A DNA stretch of 64,000 nucleotides, from NCBI GenBank assembly GCA_018238155.1, contig JABCTZ010000011.1, positions 1 through 64,000 on the forward strand. The letters run 5' to 3'. The position numbers and the translations under genes were made by a program. The notes below the pieces were generated by a model that was not told the DNA's origin, did not search any database, and was given only the letters and a program-made list of their open reading frames with translations. The DNA is from Candidatus Heimdallarchaeota archaeon (GTDB lineage: Archaea; Asgardarchaeota; Heimdallarchaeia; JABLTI01). Of the stretch, positions 32,750-43,275 are shown piece by piece (within the stretch, counting starts at the first letter, position 1; the number at the start of each line of letters is the position of its first letter).

Positions 32750-33293
32750 GAAAATAATTGGAGAAAACAATGCTTGAAGATAGCAAAAATACACCAAAAG
32801 ATTCGCAATCAACGAAAAGACTACCTCCAAAAAGAAGCAACAAAATTAGTGAATACCTATGATTTAATTTCTCTTGAGGATTTAAAAATAGAAAATATGA
32901 TGCAGAATCGCTATTTAGCAAAAAGCATCGGTAATGTCTCTTGGGGAATGTTTCGCAATTTCCTTTCGTATAAAACTGTAGAAAGCGGAAAAGTAATGGT
33001 TTTAGTAAATCCATATAATACTACTCAACTCTGCAGTGAATGTGAAGAGAAAGTAGAAAAGAGTTTAGCAATGAGAATTCATAGTTGCCCTAATTGTGGG
33101 TTAGTCATAGATAGAGATGAAAATTCAGCAAAAATAATCCTTAAGAGAGGATTGAAGAAGTTCCAGTCATCTATTGACAACACCGCTGGGTTGGCGGGAA
33201 GTGCTTGTGGAGAGACTTCAATAGAAGCTCAAGGAAGCAAGAAGATTGTTAATTAACAATTGAAACCATAGAATGCTCGGCTTCGGTAATTAA
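32750..33293 (+). mobile_element. tnpB: IS200/IS605 remnant: 5'-truncated tnpB plus right end / omegaRNA region
   Basis: ISLEDL, SWGMF...LSYK, VNPYNTTQLCSEC, CPNCG...DRDENSA; RuvC-I missing; typical 3' GGGAAG..GCTTGTGGAGA..GAAGCAAGAAG sequence. Confidence 0.88.
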
Positions 33294-33336: not shown

Positions 33337-33414
33337 AGGCCTGTGGCGCAGCCTGGATAGCGTGCTTGGCTTCGGACCAAGAGGTCGGCGGTTCAAATCC
33401 GTCCAGGCCTGCCA
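33337..33414 (+). tRNA. tRNA-Arg(UCG), CCA encoded
   Basis: AGGCCTG/CAGGCCT acceptor, CTTGG-CTTCGGA-CCAAG. Confidence 0.95.
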
Positions 33415-33479
33415 ATTTTTATTTATAATTTAGAGATTCATTACCTTTAAATTAGTTATAAGAAATAACTAATATTTGT

Positions 33480-34604
33480 TTATGCCATTGCCATTACTGC
33501 TATTACTATTGCTTCGACTATACTAAGAAAAGGTGCTATAAAAAGACCTATTTTTTTCATAAACCCTTCTTTTTTCTTTTCGAATATAGATTCAGATAAT
33601 GTTTTCAAAGTAATTGCTAAATGTGCTCTTTTTTCAGGATCTTTTTCCTTACTAATATCATTTAAAGTTCTAGTCATTTCAGCTTGAGTTAGCTTATAAG
33701 GATTAGTTTTATAGTTATCAAGTTCATCTTCCAAAGATTCAATTACAGATTTTAACTCATCAATATTATTTTGCTGAATTTCAATTGTACTTTGTAAGCT
33801 CTTCATTTGTTCTATCGTTTCTTTTGATAAAGTAGTCACTTGAGAATAATGCGCTGTTGATGATATTAAAATTTCTCTTGATTTTTCTTCATCCTTATCT
33901 GCAGAGCTTTTTATATTTTCAATTTTATCTTCAAATACCAATCTCCTACATAAAGAATCATATTTCTTTTGCTCATCTTCAGGCAATTCATCATACATTT
34001 CATCAATAATCTTAGTGCCAATACTTTTACTTCCAACCAACTCAACGTGTGCAATCGCAAAATTAAACTTATAATCTACATTAGCTTGGTTATCTATTTC
34101 ATCTTTGATTACTTCAGTTACCTCTTCTCCACCAATCATTAACAAAGAATCCAATGCAAGCAATCTGTAATCTATATCTTCATCATCTTTCATTATACTG
34201 ATTAAAACATCTTTAGCTTGTATTGTACCCAAAATTTCTATCGCTCTTTCTCTATGTGATCCTTCTTTAGCCATTTTGGATAATTTCTCTATGTCTTCAG
34301 AGGCAATTAATTCATCGAATTCAATGTCAATTTTGTATTTAGAATAGTCATCATAAGCAATTCCTACTGCAATAATTAAAAATAAACATATTACAGAACC
34401 AAAAAATATTGTATGTAAATCAGCAGGTAATGTTATTATAAGTAAAACAATAGAAATGATAAAACCTATAATAAATAAAACTGTTAATGACTTTTCTTCT
34501 GTTCTTCTCCAAAACTCACCAATACTATAACCACTATATTCCAATTCTTCATCCATTTTATTTCTCTCACAAATTGATATTCTTAAACAATTAAGCTTGA
34601 CCAT
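33480..34604 (-). CDS. 2-TM + HEAT repeat + coiled-coil membrane protein (likely start 34556)
   Basis: RERAIEILG, RLLALDSLLMIG HEAT repeats; heptad region; C-terminal hydrophobic helix. Confidence 0.7.
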   Translation of the reverse strand: MVKLNCLRISICERNKMDEELEYSGYSIGEFWRRTEEKSLTVLFIIGFIISIVLLIITLPADLHTIFFGSVICLFLIIAVGIAYDDYSKYKIDIEFDELIASEDIEKLSKMAKEGSHRERAIEILGTIQAKDVLISIMKDDEDIDYRLLALDSLLMIGGEEVTEVIKDEIDNQANVDYKFNFAIAHVELVGSKSIGTKIIDEMYDELPEDEQKKYDSLCRRLVFEDKIENIKSSADKDEEKSREILISSTAHYSQVTTLSKETIEQMKSLQSTIEIQQNNIDELKSVIESLEDELDNYKTNPYKLTQAEMTRTLNDISKEKDPEKRAHLAITLKTLSESIFEKKKEGFMKKIGLFIAPFLSIVEAIVIAVMAMA

Positions 34605-34759
34605 ATTTAATTATATCTAGTTTTTTAAAAAAGAAAGGTATAATAATTCAGAAACACGTATCTTTTTCGGGATTAAATTCTCATATATATTTCATTTGAG
34701 AAAGTGATGCCAATTTGGAAAAAGCAACTTAAAAGTGTACTCTATTGTAGCAAAACATT

Positions 34760-35860
34760 TTGAGTCTTTTTATTCATAATATTATACAGGGGAAAAAATT
34801 GAATTCGATAAACTCTAAAGAAAAAAACCATATTGCAATTTATTGGGATTATGAGAATGTACAAGTTTCAAATTTAGGAGATCAAACTAACATTCCTTCC
34901 GTTGAAAGCATTCTTGATTTTGCTAAGGAATATGGATTAGTTAAATATCAAAATATATATTCAAATTGGTCAACAGAAAACAAAGCCCTAAAAATGAGCC
35001 TTTACAGTCTTGGTTTTGAATTGATTATTGTACCTATGTCAAAAAGCAATAGTTGTGATTTAAAAATAGCAGCAGATATTGCTAATGACATATACAGTGA
35101 CAATATGATTACAGATGTTATCTTGATTACCGGTGATAAGGATTTTATTCCCATAATTACTTGGTTAAAAAAAATCGGAAAAAACGTTGTGTTAATAGGT
35201 CAACCTGATATTACAAGTGATCACTTAATTTTAAGTGCAGATGAATATATTCCGTTTACGAGTTTTACAGCAAAAGAATCAATTTGGCAAGGTACATATA
35301 AAGAAGCTAAAATTCTATTATTAGAGCTACTAAAAGAGTTAACAGAACAACTAAGGTCTACACGCTTTTCTTTTGTTAAAGCTATGATGAAAGATAAAGC
35401 AAAAGGTTTTGATGAAAAAGAAATAACTAATCGACAATATCAGAAATTCCAGGAATTCATTTTTGAAGTTGAAAAGGATAAGGCTATACAAATTAATGGC
35501 AGTGGTGGCTTCTTGGAAATGTTCTTACCTGAAGTAAACTCTGTAACTGAATCTGAGTTTGCTGAAGTTATTTCACAACCAACATTGGAACACTGGGAGT
35601 TATTTTTTGATCGTATTGAATTATGTTTTAAAGATGGCAAAGGAAAGAAAACTGAGGGAACTGAATATATACTATTGGCTTACTTGAAAACTTTAAGAGA
35701 AGAAGAGAAACTTCCTTTAACAAAAAATCAGATTCGTGATATGTTTAGTTCAATTATTGATATAGGATTGCTTGTTGAATTAAAGAAAAAGCAATATAAA
35801 ATGAGTGTTAATTATCAAGAGCTCAAGAATATTTTCTTTGGACAATTTAGAGAAAATTAG
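34760..35860 (+). CDS. NYN (LabA/DUF88) RNase with OST-HTH/LOTUS-like domains
   Basis: IYWDYEN, SCDLKI, LITGDKDF, SADEYI. Confidence 0.9.
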   Translation: MSLFIHNIIQGKKLNSINSKEKNHIAIYWDYENVQVSNLGDQTNIPSVESILDFAKEYGLVKYQNIYSNWSTENKALKMSLYSLGFELIIVPMSKSNSCDLKIAADIANDIYSDNMITDVILITGDKDFIPIITWLKKIGKNVVLIGQPDITSDHLILSADEYIPFTSFTAKESIWQGTYKEAKILLLELLKELTEQLRSTRFSFVKAMMKDKAKGFDEKEITNRQYQKFQEFIFEVEKDKAIQINGSGGFLEMFLPEVNSVTESEFAEVISQPTLEHWELFFDRIELCFKDGKGKKTEGTEYILLAYLKTLREEEKLPLTKNQIRDMFSSIIDIGLLVELKKKQYKMSVNYQELKNIFFGQFREN

Positions 35861-36084
35861 TTGTAAACAAAATTTACAATAAATATATATGATGTTTTTT
35901 TGTAATATTGCATTTTTAATGCCTTAAATCAAACAAATTGAAGAAATTCTTTTAAATTATATAGCTATTGTTAATTCATAAAATATAAAATATCTAATGA
36001 TATTGCATGAACATTAAGAAATATATACTCAATCTAATATATTTAAATGTCCAAATGCTTAATAAATTAACAAAGTGATTGAAA

Positions 36085-36300
36085 ATGTCAAAAAGAGGAA
36101 ATGATTTAGGATTCAAAGAGTCAGATATAGTAGGTAAAATTGTGAAATATGATTCAATTTCTGCATTTCATTTGACTACTTCTGGTAGAAGTTCTTTGAA
36201 AGAAAAAGTAGCAGGAAGAGGTAAAGCCATTAAAAGGCACTCAACCATTTTTTCCAAAGATAATTATAAATTACTTAATGGAAAAATAATCAAAAAATAA
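36085..36300 (+). CDS. Small basic hypothetical protein (71 aa)
   Basis: Open frame with GTGA RBS and upstream TTTAAA box, co-oriented with HD gene. Confidence 0.55.
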   Translation: MSKRGNDLGFKESDIVGKIVKYDSISAFHLTTSGRSSLKEKVAGRGKAIKRHSTIFSKDNYKLLNGKIIKK

Positions 36301-36568
36301 TTTAGGTTTTTTCAGTAATAATCATTAAAATTAAGAAAAGCTTAAATTATTCAATCTATTTTTAAAATAGAATGGAATAGGAGATAATAAAATTAAAATT
36401 GGAGAGTATGGGTCTTTAAATTATAAAAATAATAAAAGTGATTCTTCACAAGACGAAGAAAAAAACCCTGAATTAGAAATTATAAGGGCCTATTTCTCAT
36501 TTTTTGAAACCCAGCTTGAATCAGCTGATCCAATAACTGTAGATTTTTCAAAAATAACACTAAAAAAA

Positions 36569-38158
36569 ATGGAAAAAGTTACTCTAAGCACTATTCAGGA
36601 AAGTGATTATTGTAATTTGATTGAATGGAAAATTCAGGAATCTGAATTACCAAATCATTGTCTGGAAAAAATCGAAATAAATTTATTAGAATTACTGGAA
36701 TTCCTTAAAGAGGAACTTGAAAACGATTTGCAAAGTAATGAAAATACATTCAAGCTATATGTATTATTAAAATCATTTTTTACAATTATTTCTGAATTCT
36801 TTATATTAAAAGAGATACTAGAAGACTTTATCAAAGAATATAACTTAGAGAGTTCAGAAGACAATCATAAATTTTCTGAAGAAATGAAAAAAATAAGCTA
36901 TTTTTGTAAATTAAAAATTCTTTGTTGTTTTAATATAGATGAAGAACTATATGTGAAATATCTGTGCAATAAAAAAACGAAGAATTTTTCTCCTGAAAAA
37001 GGGAAGAAAATTATATCAAGTATGTTAAAAACACTGGTTTTACTAGATGACATAAATAAAGAGAATATAACTGATGACTCCATAGATCTCCCATATATAT
37101 TGAATTTCAATGTAGAATATAGTCTATTCACACCATCTCAATTTAATCAAATGATTGAAAAGAATTTAAATTATATTAATTATGAAAAAATAATTGAAAA
37201 TTTACGAATTATTAATGATATATTTTATAGGGATCACTTTATTCATTCTTTTTTTGTGTCTGCTTTACTTCTATACATAGTCAATAAAATTGATGACATA
37301 TTACCTGATAATTTGAATAGACATCTATTAAATTTAGTAGGATTATTTCATGACGATGCTTATCCAATTGAGGAAATTACCTCTCTACTGCCAAAATTTC
37401 TTGAACCAATAGAAGAGATTTTTCCAATAAAATTTAATTTTTCAGATATTTTTACCGCAATAACCTCCAAACAAAATATTGTAGATGAAGAAATTGAAAA
37501 TGAATTCATTAGTAAATATTTTATAACTCCTATATGTCAAGATAATGAAATTAATGATAATTTTAAAAAAATTTTGCAAATTGCAATAAAAACCATTATT
37601 TTATCAAAGGAATGTGATCATGGATACATCTCATCATTATCACTGTTCTCAAATGTAAAAAGATTATCTACAAATTCTACTGTAATCGCAAGATTTGGTT
37701 ATAAGTTCAATCTAGATGAGAATGAGCTTAATAAAATTGGTATCACTGATTTTATTCCTAAAATATTTGAAAATGTTTTTTATTCAATCGCACTTCATAA
37801 TATAAAATTTAATAAAGGGGATGGAGTAGAATTATTATTTAACAATGATACTTCAAAATTTATCTCTTTATTAAATTTAGTAGATAATCTACAACATTGG
37901 AGAAGGACCCCAACAAAAGATTACGATAATGCTATATTAGAATCATTAAGTTTAGACACTGGGTCTCTAAAAATAAAATTAAAGTATATTTTTAATAATG
38001 TACCTACTTCGTTTAATAGGCATTCAATCGAAGATTATTTTAAAAAAATATTCACATTATTTAAATTTGATAAAAGAAGCATAAGTGAATTAGAAATTAT
38101 TATTGATATTAGTGATATTGGTGAAAGGAATATTGAACTAAAGTTTTCACATAATTAG
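36569..38158 (+). CDS. HD-superfamily metal-dependent phosphohydrolase (frame open from 36371)
   Basis: YRDHFIHSFFV, GLFHDDAYP, DHGYIS, IALHN, VDNLQHWRR. Confidence 0.8.
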   Translation: MEKVTLSTIQESDYCNLIEWKIQESELPNHCLEKIEINLLELLEFLKEELENDLQSNENTFKLYVLLKSFFTIISEFFILKEILEDFIKEYNLESSEDNHKFSEEMKKISYFCKLKILCCFNIDEELYVKYLCNKKTKNFSPEKGKKIISSMLKTLVLLDDINKENITDDSIDLPYILNFNVEYSLFTPSQFNQMIEKNLNYINYEKIIENLRIINDIFYRDHFIHSFFVSALLLYIVNKIDDILPDNLNRHLLNLVGLFHDDAYPIEEITSLLPKFLEPIEEIFPIKFNFSDIFTAITSKQNIVDEEIENEFISKYFITPICQDNEINDNFKKILQIAIKTIILSKECDHGYISSLSLFSNVKRLSTNSTVIARFGYKFNLDENELNKIGITDFIPKIFENVFYSIALHNIKFNKGDGVELLFNNDTSKFISLLNLVDNLQHWRRTPTKDYDNAILESLSLDTGSLKIKLKYIFNNVPTSFNRHSIEDYFKKIFTLFKFDKRSISELEIIIDISDIGERNIELKFSHN

Positions 38159-38169
38159 GGGAAATCAAT

Positions 38170-40917
38170 ATGTTGTTTATTAATAAATACAATAAAAAAG
38201 ATAACAATTTTTTAAATATTTTATTTATTCAAACACATAATGTGAATGAAATAAAAACGATAAAACAGAAAATTGCCGATAACAATATCAATGATAATGG
38301 AAAAAGTTCATATTTTCATTCTTTAGGAAAATATGATATTGTAATCTTAGAAGAAACAAAAGATCTTACTTCTATACAAAAATCACCTATTCTTACCGAT
38401 CCAACAATACAAATCAAAGGGTGGTTTCCAATATCTGCTGTTGAATTTTACTCTGATTTAGATCTGAAAAATAGCAATTTTGAAGTAGTAAATTCTGAGA
38501 ACAACGAACTAAAGCGTGGTTTTGAAATTAGTGAAACAGAAATAGTTCTTGTTACTTTGATTAATCTTCAAGATTTTATAAATTTAAATGAGAATATTTC
38601 CAATACCATTTTTCGTAATTTAAACGATTCTTCAAAAGTTATAGATACAAAATCCTTTTCTGATTTCTCAAGATTTTGCATTATTGAGGATTTGATACAA
38701 TTAGCTTATGAGAAGCAAATAGAAATGAGAATTTTTGGTGGTTTTGGTAGAAATGAAATTATTATACTAACAAATCTAACAACAAGTGATTCTAATAAAT
38801 TACAAAATGCTGAAAGCATATACTATCAAAGAAGAAATAATGGGAAAAAAACAACACAAAAACCTGTAACCGTTGCTTGGAGAGTTACAAACTTAATTAA
38901 TCAAATTCTTCCAATAAATAAAAATTTAGCAACAATATTACCACATATTGAATTGGATAATATCGAAAAAAGAATAAATGCCAATGCTATTAATATTTCC
39001 AGAGCTATAGATTTAACCTCAATTATATCAATATCATTTAATGCAAATAGTATTATCAATTTGGATACTGATACTGTTTCAATTATTGAAGAAGAAACAA
39101 AATTAAGCACTTTTATTTCCACTGATAATATACTGTCGTGTATAGAACTTCCAAAACTTGATAAATTAATAAAAAGAAACACTATTTTCGGGTTTTATGA
39201 TTATTATTATGAATGGGAATGTGGTATTTTTGAATGTATTGATAAAATAATTAGCTTTAAAAGAACAATAGAAGAAAGTGATAATCTTATTCAAACATAT
39301 ACTTTTATCTCCCCAATAAATCTTTCAAGTAAATTCGAAAAAGTTAATGGTTATCTAAAAACATTAGATTTTAAAAAAAGTAAGAATTATTTAAGCATTA
39401 TACCTAGAAAACCAAATTGTTCTGGATGCTCAGTTTTTAAAATATTAAAACAAAATAATTATCCCCCCTCAAATTTAAAGAGATTATTCTTTTATTTTGC
39501 TGAAAATAAACTTTTTGAATTAGAATCCATTATAAGAAATTCCTTTGAAGATCCTTCAATAATTTGTTCATTAAGGAATATATGTAACTATATTGAAGGC
39601 ATTTATAAAGACATAGTTAAATATTCAGAGATAGAGGAAGAAAAGAGAAATAAAATTGAAAATCCATTATTATACCCTAAATATATAAAATATATTGAAA
39701 ATGAAAAGAATAGAAATAGAAACAAATTAATGCAAGATATTGGAACATTACAATTTGTTTTGCAACAAAGACTTTCAAATCTACAACAAACAAAAATGAT
39801 AGGTGGCAAATCTTTAGAAATAAATCAAATTCCTATTAATTATGAACAAATAATTATTGCTGCTGAAACAATGTGTTTTTATACATTTAATCAATTTAAT
39901 ATGAATTTATTCGAAATGGATTTAATTAAAGCTAAATTATGGCCAATTGTTACAATTGGATTAGATAGCACTTTTACACTAATTCCACCAGGTTTTATAA
40001 ATTTACCAAATAAAAGTATTTATGAGCCAAGCACTTGGTCTGGTATTATCCATGAATCGATACATTATATATTCAATCATATAAAAATAGAGGGAAAGAA
40101 ACTAGAAAAATATAATGAAATATCAAATTTAGTAAAAAATGAAAATGATGAGAATATTGAATACTTTGAAATTTTTGATGATTTGCTAATTGATTTAATT
40201 ATATTAATAATTGGATTTGATTTTAATATTACGCCATTTATAATCTCCTCTATAACAAATATGATTGAAGAGAATTTTACTTGGGAAAACTTTAGTCGAT
40301 TGATTATTTCTTTTACATTCTCAATTTATTATGAATTAAACAAAGAAAATGATATAGATTTAATCCCCCTCAATGAGATTTTGTCTCATAAATTTCCGAG
40401 TAAAAACAAAAATCATGAACTAGATTTCTTTGATAAGATATGTGAAATAGTTTCTATTTTTTATCAAAATATAATCGATCAAGAAAAACTACCTTATAAA
40501 AGTGATGAAGTCAAAAAAATATTTAATACATTTTGTAATAAAACATACAAAGTTAAAAACTTTGAAACTAAAAAATCTTTATTGGAATTATTTTATGATT
40601 ATTTGATTATTCAAGGGGATATGATAAAGATTAAAGATTCAAAGAAAAATGATATTAGAACCTTACGGAAATATCTCGAAGAAGGAAAGATATCCAATTT
40701 TTCACCCAAAGATATATTGTTGTGTTTAAATGAACCTTTAGAAAAAAACACTCATAAATTGAAATTTTCAATACGAGGTAAGGAAATGGAATATGAATAT
40801 TATTTTCCAAAAGAAAATTTCAGAATAACTAATAGTCTAATAGTAAAATATACTGCAATAATGAATTTAATTAAATGGCAAGAGGAACAAATACTTGGGG
40901 AATATAAAAAATTATAA
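38170..40917 (+). CDS. 915-aa protein with repeated ferredoxin-like GxYD units and HExxH metallopeptidase motif
   Basis: SLGKYDIV, GFGRNEII, IFGFYDYY; WSGIIHESIHY followed by EIFDD; 11 nt downstream of HD gene. Confidence 0.65.
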   Translation: MLFINKYNKKDNNFLNILFIQTHNVNEIKTIKQKIADNNINDNGKSSYFHSLGKYDIVILEETKDLTSIQKSPILTDPTIQIKGWFPISAVEFYSDLDLKNSNFEVVNSENNELKRGFEISETEIVLVTLINLQDFINLNENISNTIFRNLNDSSKVIDTKSFSDFSRFCIIEDLIQLAYEKQIEMRIFGGFGRNEIIILTNLTTSDSNKLQNAESIYYQRRNNGKKTTQKPVTVAWRVTNLINQILPINKNLATILPHIELDNIEKRINANAINISRAIDLTSIISISFNANSIINLDTDTVSIIEEETKLSTFISTDNILSCIELPKLDKLIKRNTIFGFYDYYYEWECGIFECIDKIISFKRTIEESDNLIQTYTFISPINLSSKFEKVNGYLKTLDFKKSKNYLSIIPRKPNCSGCSVFKILKQNNYPPSNLKRLFFYFAENKLFELESIIRNSFEDPSIICSLRNICNYIEGIYKDIVKYSEIEEEKRNKIENPLLYPKYIKYIENEKNRNRNKLMQDIGTLQFVLQQRLSNLQQTKMIGGKSLEINQIPINYEQIIIAAETMCFYTFNQFNMNLFEMDLIKAKLWPIVTIGLDSTFTLIPPGFINLPNKSIYEPSTWSGIIHESIHYIFNHIKIEGKKLEKYNEISNLVKNENDENIEYFEIFDDLLIDLIILIIGFDFNITPFIISSITNMIEENFTWENFSRLIISFTFSIYYELNKENDIDLIPLNEILSHKFPSKNKNHELDFFDKICEIVSIFYQNIIDQEKLPYKSDEVKKIFNTFCNKTYKVKNFETKKSLLELFYDYLIIQGDMIKIKDSKKNDIRTLRKYLEEGKISNFSPKDILLCLNEPLEKNTHKLKFSIRGKEMEYEYYFPKENFRITNSLIVKYTAIMNLIKWQEEQILGEYKKL

Positions 40918-41206
40918 TGAAAGGATTGATTTGAATGAATCTTAAGGATGTTTGTTAAACATCTATACCTCTTTCAAGAATTAATCATTATAAATTGTTT
41001 TTTAATAAGTAGAGTTGTTAATAAAAATTGGCAAAATTTCACAAGGTTCATTGAACTTTCTATTTAGCATATGTATTCTTTTTTCTCTCTTTATTTTAAT
41101 TTCCTTGATTTAAAATAGAAATTTTTATTACTTATTAAAAATAAATCTGATTTCTTACTTAGTATACGTTTTTCTGTTGATTGAGCAAAAATCAAACTTT
41201 AAGGAT

Positions 41207-41285
41207 TGGCGGATGTGGGGAGATTTGAACTCCCGAACCTCCTGGTCCGGAGCCAGGCACTCTATCCAAGCTGAGCTACACATCC
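41207..41285 (-). tRNA. tRNA-Arg(CCG), CCA encoded
   Basis: GGATGTG acceptor, CCTGG-CTCCGGA-CCAGG. Confidence 0.95.
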
Positions 41286-41401: not shown

Positions 41402-41614
41402 ATGTCCGAACCAACCATCCCAAAACCAACTTCAGAATTCATTCAAGTTGAATGTCCTGATTGTAACAAGGTTCAAAGAGTCTTTAGCCATGCTTCCACG
41501 CAAGTTCATTGTCAAGTATGCAATTGCTTATTAGCAAAACCTGCAGGTGGCAAATGTAAAATACTTGGTAAAATCGTTGAACCAGAAAAAAAGGTCGTAG
41601 AACCACAAGCCTAA
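41402..41614 (+). CDS. rps27e: 30S ribosomal protein eS27
   Basis: P.SEFIQVECPDC...VFSHAST.V.CQVC...PAGGK. Confidence 0.96.
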   Translation: MSEPTIPKPTSEFIQVECPDCNKVQRVFSHASTQVHCQVCNCLLAKPAGGKCKILGKIVEPEKKVVEPQA

Positions 41615-42513: not shown

Positions 42514-43275
42514 TTAGGTTTCAATTCTTGGTGCAAGGTAATAAGTAAGTTTTCCTCCAGCGACAATTGGAAACTCCAATTGAATTGGCATACTAGCAGA
42601 GAATGCTAGCATTACTAATTCACTTGCTTTGATTGCTTTTGTCATCTCAGTTAAATAGCTAAGTGAATACATTGCACTTGATTCTTCTCTTACATTGAAT
42701 TCAGCAATTACATCACTATCTTTTTCGATGTAAATCTTTACATCCTTGGTTTCACTAGAAGCAGAAAATGTTAAGCCATTTTCATCTGTTACAATTCTAA
42801 TATGATCACCGATTATTTCAGCGTCTTTTACTGCTTGTTGCAAAGCATCTGCAGTGAGTTTTATCTTTGATTTACTATCAATTGCTGGTGCAGGGTAATC
42901 GCTTTCTCCTAAATCGAGCAAGCTTATACCAAAACTTCTAACATTTTGCCCTTTGAATGTCATTACAAGTTTTGCTGTTCCTTCAAGCTCCATTATAAGT
43001 TCATCAGATGAACTTGAGCGTCTCATGATCTGAATCATTTCATCTAAATTAATGCCTAAACGAGTGACTTCCGAACATTCATATTCTTCGAAAGCATTTG
43101 CAGGAAGGAAAAAGTCGACCATAGCTACTCTACTGGGATCCATTGCCCGTAGTTCAATGCCTCTTTCTGAGGCGATGAAATTTGCTTCATCAAGTAAGGT
43201 GAGTGATTCGATAATATTTTTCCATATTTTTGCGTCTGCTAAAACCATTCTAAGTGCCATTATTTTATCCTCCAT
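42514..43275 (-). CDS. pcn: DNA polymerase sliding clamp PCNA
   Basis: LRAMDPSRVAMV, YSLSYL, LTYYLAPRIE. Confidence 0.98.
   Translation of the reverse strand: MEDKIMALRMVLADAKIWKNIIESLTLLDEANFIASERGIELRAMDPSRVAMVDFFLPANAFEEYECSEVTRLGINLDEMIQIMRRSSSSDELIMELEGTAKLVMTFKGQNVRSFGISLLDLGESDYPAPAIDSKSKIKLTADALQQAVKDAEIIGDHIRIVTDENGLTFSASSETKDVKIYIEKDSDVIAEFNVREESSAMYSLSYLTEMTKAIKASELVMLAFSASMPIQLEFPIVAGGKLTYYLAPRIET

Follow-up and report, generated by a model that had tools for sequence, protein, structure and literature searches.

The 64-kb window analysed here, by which we mean the whole stretch from position 1 to 64,000 of contig JABCTZ010000011.1 of a Candidatus Heimdallarchaeota archaeon, harbours a conserved two-gene operon in which the gene for an HD-superfamily protein is followed by the gene for a 915-amino-acid (aa) protein. 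The latter belongs to an unnamed family; we use ZnP as a working name for the protein and for its family. As judged from sequence comparison and structure modelling, ZnP comprises three RAM/ferredoxin-like domains, a helical linker and a putative gluzincin-type metallopeptidase core. We tentatively read the HD-ZnP pair, from its sequence features, as a new and rare conflict module in which a constant sensor-protease would be combined with a swappable nucleotide-directed partner, and we give this reading somewhat less than an even chance. Three open reading frames (ORFs) lie co-oriented on the + strand at 36079-40917:

36079-36300, + strand: small basic ORF of 73 aa (TTG start) or 71 aa (ATG at 36085), recognised as an ORF and by its position
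36569-38158, + strand: HD-superfamily protein of 529 aa, recognised by its ORF, its motifs and HD profiles
38170-40917, + strand: ZnP, 915 aa, recognised by its ORF, alignments and motifs

An earlier sequence-only reading of this DNA had described three co-oriented genes, in which 11 nucleotides (nt) separate the HD gene from that of the 915-aa protein. The ORFs bear this out: 11 nt lie between the HD stop codon and the next ATG, that of ZnP. An open frame of 915 codons in DNA of 24% guanine plus cytosine (GC), with homologues elsewhere, is not a product of chance. Close homologues of ZnP are few, and a search of 5.8 billion protein clusters recovered only two, both 33% identical and both from one Joint Genome Institute (JGI) metagenome. 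An HD homologue is located directly upstream of ZnP in all three close loci, with gaps of 11 nt in the window and of 1 and 19 nt in the metagenomic loci, so that the co-occurrence of both genes elsewhere, which the sequence-only reading implied, is found wherever a close homologue is found (3/3). The window HD protein matches the two metagenomic HD proteins in BLASTP searches (6e-36 and 1e-35). Adjacency and co-orientation are thus kept in 3/3 HD-type loci at a protein identity of only ~30-37%; HD and ZnP make up a conserved operon of two genes. Beyond these two, no ORF is common to the three HD-type loci. A word-index search with the window HD protein found only the protein itself; its relatives were reached via the neighbourhood of the ZnP genes.

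The domain structure of ZnP was derived from an alignment of 10 family sequences and from an AlphaFold2 model, likewise computed from 10 sequences (mean predicted local distance difference test, pLDDT, 64.6; predicted template-modelling score, pTM, 0.49). The following elements can be distinguished:

38197-38454, + strand: RAM-like unit 1, aa 10-95 (hhalign against AsnC RAM of the same genome: probability 86%, E 5.1e-6)
38527-38814, + strand: ferredoxin-like unit 2, aa 120-215 (motif conservation and tandem-barrel fold matches)
39001-39324, + strand: RAM-like unit 3, aa 278-385 (hhalign against AsnC RAM of the same genome: probability 88%, E 2.8e-6)
39835-40344, + strand: zincin-like catalytic core, aa 556-725 (invariant columns and secondary structure of the model)
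40051-40065, + strand: HExxH motif, aa 628-632 (invariant)
40180-40194, + strand: acidic pair [DE]671-x-x-x-[DE]675 (conserved in 10/10 sequences)

Each of the three N-terminal units carries a short motif at a predicted beta-hairpin (G53-K-Y-D56, G193-R-N-E196 and G341-F-Y-D344). G53 and D56 are invariant in the 10 sequences, and G193 and E196 of unit 2 as well as G341 and D344 of unit 3 are nearly so. The comparison set for the RAM assignment consisted of the AsnC_trans_reg domains of the same genome, and the resulting alignments take in the G-x-Y-D turn. The likeness of these units to Lrp/AsnC-type ligand-binding domains, proposed before from the letters alone, is therefore substantiated for units 1 and 3 (86-88%, E 3-5e-6) and is accompanied by a tandem ferredoxin-like barrel fold: residues 8-365 are predicted to form repeated beta-alpha-beta-beta units, and Foldseek, VIA-align and an ESM-atlas shape search place the N-terminal third among tandem ferredoxin-like alpha+beta barrels, with template-modelling (TM) scores of 0.55-0.66 to the ABM and Dabb families. 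Unit 2 has no significant hhalign match among the AsnC RAM domains of the genome, and the Pfam profile PF01037 gives no match on ZnP at E <= 0.1. No helix-turn-helix (HTH) family was detected in ZnP either, the chain starting directly with RAM-like unit 1. ZnP would thus differ from the known Lrp/AsnC RAM proteins (AsnC_trans_reg, PF01037) in that a single chain combines three units with a protease-like region and lacks a helix-turn-helix, unit 2 not being recognisably RAM by sequence. The predicted fold also resembles other tandem ferredoxin-like barrels, namely those of the siroheme decarboxylases NirDL/AhbAB, of chlorite dismutase/HemQ and of ABM monooxygenases.

In the model the barrels are followed by a long helical hairpin or bundle (residues 436-540) and then by the zincin-like core, after which comes a further conserved C-terminal region. 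The invariant columns of the family further include R534, W591, G608, N611, P613, P620, W623, G625, H628, E629, H632 and R710. The HExxH motif (H628-E-S-I-H632), whose conservation was a point of the sequence-only reading, is invariant across the family (10/10). It is predicted to lie in a helix (residues 624-637) that follows three short strands, one of which bears a conserved G-x-I-N-x-P, and the acidic pair is located in a downstream helix (residues 666-683). Most relatives have glutamate in this pair; the window protein itself has Asp-Asp at positions 671 and 675. We take the combination of HExxH with an ExxxD-type arrangement to be that of the gluzincins (clan MA). ZnP is accordingly comparable to members of MEROPS clan MA(E) such as thermolysin (M4), aminopeptidase (M1), neprilysin (M13) and Lit in the HExxH helix after short strands, in the downstream helix with its acidic pair, and in the G-x-I-N-x-P segment, which is placed like a substrate-binding edge strand; R710 completes the conserved features of the core.

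Searches beyond these motifs were largely silent for the core. The full ZnP profile found nothing in the PDB sequence set at E <= 1, and a profile of the HExxH region gave spurious matches only at E <= 10. When ZnP was aligned by hhalign with an M1 peptidase of the same genome, the HExxH helix alone was matched (E 0.16, not significant). In fold searches with the whole protein the matches went to the N-terminal and helical parts, so that the zincin core was barely covered. A genome search with Peptidase_MA_2 (PF13485) stayed silent in the control genomes as well, which makes it uninformative. No family member has a Pfam match; the window copy also lacks an NCBIfam match, and its PHROGs matches are insignificant.

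More distant members of the family were found with HMMER. A three-sequence ZnP profile searched against 1.8 billion cluster representatives returned the three close proteins, one fragment of 68 aa and five proteins of 687-712 aa (E 7e-6 to 2e-4), and a metagenome scan added three further loci. The HD-type set and the distant set align over 540 columns, corresponding to window residues 14-704 (hhalign probability 99.6%, E 2.6e-24); by this comparison the distant proteins of ~700 aa are full-length ZnP homologues with the same predicted architecture. What changes between the loci is the partner. An HD, SIR2 or kinase gene adjoins ZnP in 10 of the 11 family loci, and on one family contig only a small ORF and ZnP are visible. 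APH-type kinases are the partners in five loci (26-30 bits; gathering score 23.2), usually with the kinase gene overlapping the ZnP gene by 4 nt, and SIR2_2 enzymes, whose genes overlap as well, are the partners in two locus types (27.4 and 27.6 bits; gathering score 24.5). In the maximum-likelihood tree of ZnP the HD-linked proteins form one clade (100/100) and the SIR2-linked proteins another (100/99), each on a long branch. Partner type thus tracks the ZnP clades, which argues for old and co-inherited associations. Integrases adjoin the module in two of the related loci (L007 and L009), and a ParB_N gene is found in a third (L011). An adaptor domain shared across the partner types was considered and rejected: the HD, kinase and SIR2 partners have no common domain in hhalign comparisons (probability 0.1-0.2%).

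The family is extremely rare. A scan of genome contigs for related loci with the distant-set profile found nothing, the same was true of viral contigs scanned with the HD-type-set and distant-set profiles, and tblastn with two distant members had no match among plasmids. A word-index search with the 10-sequence alignment recovered the window protein only, while a protein-atlas feature search with ZnP led to unnamed 'hypothetical protein' clusters exclusively. The general impact of the module is limited by this rarity.

The HD-ZnP operon travels as cargo on a strain-specific low-GC insertion, and the small basic ORF may lead it. The analysis shows that the gene pair and its motifs are conserved, which domains ZnP contains, that partners are swapped and that the operon lies on an island. 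What we infer is its part in defence, which component controls the other, the substrate of the HD protein and whatever the small ORF does. The ZnP protease would be under the control of a ligand or trigger that acts on the RAM-like domains. Its neighbour, a nucleotide-directed enzyme and in this window the HD hydrolase, would serve as the effector that is switched on by proteolysis or release. The protease might, for example, cut off the helical and variable N-terminal part of the HD protein, or eliminate the small basic protein. It is the joint occurrence of a constant, conserved, controller-like protein, coupled but exchangeable partners, a patchy distribution and a low-GC insertion or integrases that leads us to a conflict module. 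The wider proposal, that ZnP represents a new modular immune family of uncultured archaea and bacteria in which a RAM array that senses a metabolite or trigger, fused to a gluzincin protease, would proteolytically license HD, SIR2 NADase or kinase effectors and so form a zinc-protease counterpart to immunity gated by caspases or Lon, appears rather doubtful to us.

The exchange of partners can also be read with the opposite polarity. The partner would then make, modify or destroy a nucleotide-derived molecule, the RAM-like domains would sense it, and the metalloprotease would be the effector that acts on a host or viral protein, for which the Lit peptidase, which cleaves EF-Tu during phage exclusion, provides a model. 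Each of the partner types works on nucleotides, NAD or ATP, RAM-type domains are sensors of small ligands, and within the ZnP family conservation is highest in the protease motifs, all of which would suit such an arrangement; so would the lack of an adaptor domain among the partners, which a diffusible link fits better than a common docking surface. However, a domain of the signal-synthase type is not present, and in described systems the variable component is generally known to be the effector, a role that SIR2 and HD domains, too, usually have. We consider this reversal unlikely. The reading in which ZnP controls its partner and not the reverse gets neither help nor harm from a complex prediction for ZnP residues 540-915 with the HD protein, which returned a score of 0.00 and thus no answer, and which we count neither way.

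In the HD protein, the presumed effector of the window, the HD core (aa 205-455, nt 37181-37933) lies between a helical N-terminal region and a C-terminal tail rich in beta structure. The set of metal-ligand motifs listed in the sequence-only reading is complete (R221-D-H223-x-x-H226, H261-D262, D350-H351-G352, H410-N411 and D439-x-x-Q442-x-W444-x-R446) and invariant in 3/3 homologues. It includes the H...HD...D metal-ligand signature (H226, H261-D262 and D350) with H223, H351, H410 and D439 in addition; the combination of H226, H261-D262, H351, H410 and D439 with D350 presumably corresponds to the signature of two-metal HD phosphohydrolases. On the HD profile, the homologue in the second metagenomic HD-ZnP locus (L002) reaches 22.3 bits (E 1.7e-4). 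Compared by hhalign with the HD domains of its own genome, the window protein aligns over 42 columns comprising the H..HD segment only (probability 64%, E 6.6e-5). A protein-atlas feature search with the HD core pointed to HD and HD-CE clusters (0.87-0.92), which serve as leads only. PADLOC models, those for dGTPases included, gave no match at E <= 0.1, and NCBIfam gave none. In the PDB sequence search the full HD profile found nothing at E <= 1 and the core profile only spurious matches at E <= 10.

At the 5' end of the HD gene, 66 codons without a stop precede the first ATG in frame (36371-36568). None of them is ATG, GTG or TTG, and the last ~29 of these codons (36482-36568) can be aligned with the N-termini of the two homologues. 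Homology that extends upstream with no canonical start codon means that the start is either non-canonical or lost. A lost start would agree with a view of the ORFs as decaying cargo, remnants that have no current role in this genome, and the extreme rarity of the family could be taken in the same sense. Against this, both long ORFs are intact in DNA of 24% GC, in which stop codons are frequent, and the catalytic residues are all invariant among homologues of ~30% identity, so that we regard decay as very improbable.

The module is located in an island of 7.8 kb (33415-41206) between two tRNA-Arg genes. The island and its borders comprise, besides the module, the following features:

32774-33256, + strand: C-terminal fragment of a TnpB/Cas12f-like protein (TNB domain 2e-20, OrfB_IS605 2e-10)
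33337-33414, + strand: tRNA-Arg(UCG), left edge of the variable island
33480-34604, - strand: 374-aa protein with hydrophobic N- and C-terminal segments, a HEAT-like stretch and a coiled coil (weak matches only)
34760-35860, + strand: NYN (LabA-like) nuclease-domain protein of 366 aa (Pfam 3e-23; PADLOC NYN 1.8e-10)
41207-41285, - strand: tRNA-Arg(CCG), right edge of the variable island

The GC content is 24-28% at 34-42 kb, compared to ~32% across the window. The surroundings are archaeal housekeeping genes, with an S27e-like gene at 41402-41614 (+ strand) and the PCNA gene at 42514-43275 (- strand), and the PCNA protein is 86-98% identical to PCNAs on contigs of Heimdallarchaeota metagenome-assembled genomes; the source assembly comprises 4.08 Mb in 46 contigs at 90.7% completeness and 5.9% contamination. 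The flanks of the island are syntenic in genomes of the same genus, where the tRNA-Arg genes or the flanks are ~0.6-1.9 kb apart. In the nearest relative (genome G086), which shares 87-88% nucleotide identity in the flanks, the tRNA-Arg spot holds a different cargo of three unrelated ORFs of 192, 181 and 61 aa (L014, 722-2617). A search of 399 other genomes of the phylum, 10 congeners among them, gave no match to the ZnP profile. Given this absence and the different cargo in the nearest relative, the stretch bounded by tRNA-Arg(UCG) and tRNA-Arg(CCG) is a hot spot of variation and the island is strain-specific cargo at this site. Convincing att-like direct repeats were not found at the island ends.

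The position of the pair, on an insertion that is strain-specific, lies at tRNA genes and has a TnpB fragment beside it, would also agree with a function other than immunity. The operon could be a selfish or regulatory module of the mobile island, for example of a toxin-antitoxin-like addiction type, or a metabolite-responsive protease with a nucleotide-metabolising enzyme that serves the physiology of the element or the host. The integrases and the ParB_N gene in related loci agree with this, as does the classical function of RAM domains, which sense amino acids in metabolic regulation. On the other hand, metabolic operons do not typically exchange HD, SIR2 and kinase partners while one large protein stays constant, toxin-antitoxin pairs usually consist of smaller proteins, and Pfam and NCBIfam reveal no DNA-binding, antitoxin-like domain in the module. 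A non-immune function therefore has, in our estimate, a low probability.

Partner swapping, the strain-specific low-GC island and the integrases in related loci strengthen the interpretation as a conflict system that had been put forward from the sequence only. Several points weigh against it. The zincin fold of ZnP is assigned only from motifs and from the secondary structure of the model and, in distinction from the known gluzincins, ZnP matches no Pfam peptidase family and no solved peptidase in the PDB sequence search; it is a putative peptidase. The window HD protein scores 13.7-14.5 bits on the HD profile (PF01966), below the gathering score of 22, and its AlphaFold2 model, built from 3 sequences and predicted to be helical, has a pLDDT of 38.8 and is unusable for a fold search. 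The partners share no adaptor domain, which makes a single conserved protein-protein interface unlikely. With only ~11 loci known, an enrichment in defence islands is not computable, and the neighbours in related loci hint only weakly at defence (a Cas4-like protein, 9e-7, and a PDC-M19A-like protein, 2e-6).

A match to an already described system was not found in PADLOC-DB v2.0.0: the small ORF, the HD protein and eight ZnP members had no match, the sole exception being a spurious one to 4TM (E 0.021), and ZnP matches no Pfam or NCBIfam model either, in line with the view that no named system has this architecture. Literature on HExxH and SIR2 anti-phage systems, on TCAD9 and on Asgard defence yielded no description of the ZnP architecture. 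Known HD immune effectors, such as deoxynucleotide triphosphatases (dNTPases) of the dGTPase/SAMHD1 type, Cas3 and other HD nucleases, have H...HD...D together with residues equivalent to H351, H410 and D439 in common with the window HD protein, but only the H..HD segment can be aligned, and the long helical N-terminal region and the beta-rich tail set it apart. No sequence similarity to dGTPase/SAMHD1-type dNTPases was found with PADLOC (E <= 0.1) or in the PDB. Should the conflict-module reading hold, HD-ZnP would follow the same logic, a protease under sensor control licensing a separate effector, as the type III CRISPR-associated CalpL-CalpT-CalpS system, Craspase and the bacterial gasdermins with their proteases, by analogy only: the protease would be a zincin instead of a Lon, caspase-like or serine protease, the sensor would be RAM-like instead of SAVED, TPR or guided by CRISPR RNA (crRNA), and no homology was detected. 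The distant ZnP relatives resemble Thoeris ThsA, DSR and SIR2-HerA in that they, too, go together with SIR2_2 enzymes, although the PADLOC matches of these SIR2 proteins are weak (E at least 5e-4). Similarity of the ZnP-linked APH-like kinases to the TCAD9-type kinases of a ternary conflict system remains sub-threshold (23-35 bits; Pfam cut-off 40), and in contrast to SIR2 and kinase conflict systems the ZnP loci are devoid of STAND, HerA, TIR or another signature partner.

If the conflict-module reading is true, HD-ZnP would exemplify a defence architecture that is invisible to current detectors and has a RAM metabolite sensor and a zinc protease as its constant controller, combined with HD, SIR2 or kinase as exchangeable partners. 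It would widen the range of protease-gated immune mechanisms, and it would offer a testable case of one controller that couples to unrelated effector folds. The example would come from the Asgard archaea, a group in which the immune repertoire bears on how eukaryotic immunity arose.

The small basic ORF upstream of the HD gene is a different matter. It contains 18 lysine and arginine residues in 73. An ORF of at least 73 aa occurred in 5.5% of simulated spacer sequences on either strand and in 1% on the + strand (first-order Markov model with the base transitions of the 708-nt spacer), which makes a chance origin only mildly unlikely. Small basic ORFs, often with a C-terminus rich in lysine and arginine, head most of the related operons. 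Homology among them across locus types was rejected: the window ORF has no homologue among the small ORFs of the two metagenomic HD-ZnP loci (L001, L002) or of the kinase-type loci by BLASTP (E <= 100) or hhalign (probability 0.2%). Its membership in the module is uncertain, and we regard its location as a positional hint and not as a finding. To call the system a three-gene one, as was done before, is too strong in view of the lack of a sequence homologue in the sister loci. The other parts of the earlier interpretation, namely that the protease activates or releases the HD enzyme, that the latter depletes dNTPs and that the small protein is an inhibitor or substrate, stay hypothetical. The kinase-type loci share a basic protein of ~70 aa of their own, encoded directly upstream of ZnP (L010, 660-872; L011, 5758-5973; L005, 1376-1591). 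These proteins are homologous to each other, carry an E-F-D motif at their centre, end in a C-terminus rich in Arg and Lys and belong to no known family.

The neighbouring genes show a few further features. Upstream of HD-ZnP in the second metagenomic locus (L002, 1-7105) we found genes for a LAGLIDADG-type protein, a Cas4-like PD-(D/E)xK nuclease (PADLOC Cas4 9e-7), a winged helix-turn-helix protein and a 646-aa HTH/zinc-ribbon protein; these surroundings may be mobile or rich in defence genes. Within the window, neither the NYN gene nor the gene of the 374-aa protein nor the TnpB fragment recurs in the related HD-ZnP loci. The NYN protein has a C-terminal extension of 200 aa that is not assigned to any known family, and the weak matches of the 374-aa protein are to PspA/IM30 (3e-4) and PycTM (0.01). 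The TnpB fragment lies just outside the island, where it abuts tRNA-Arg(UCG). A 96% identical copy occupies the same place in the nearest relative, which also has a 5.4-kb insertion to the left of the fragment, and a second copy, 69% identical, is located on the same contig as the window (C11, 126271-126789).

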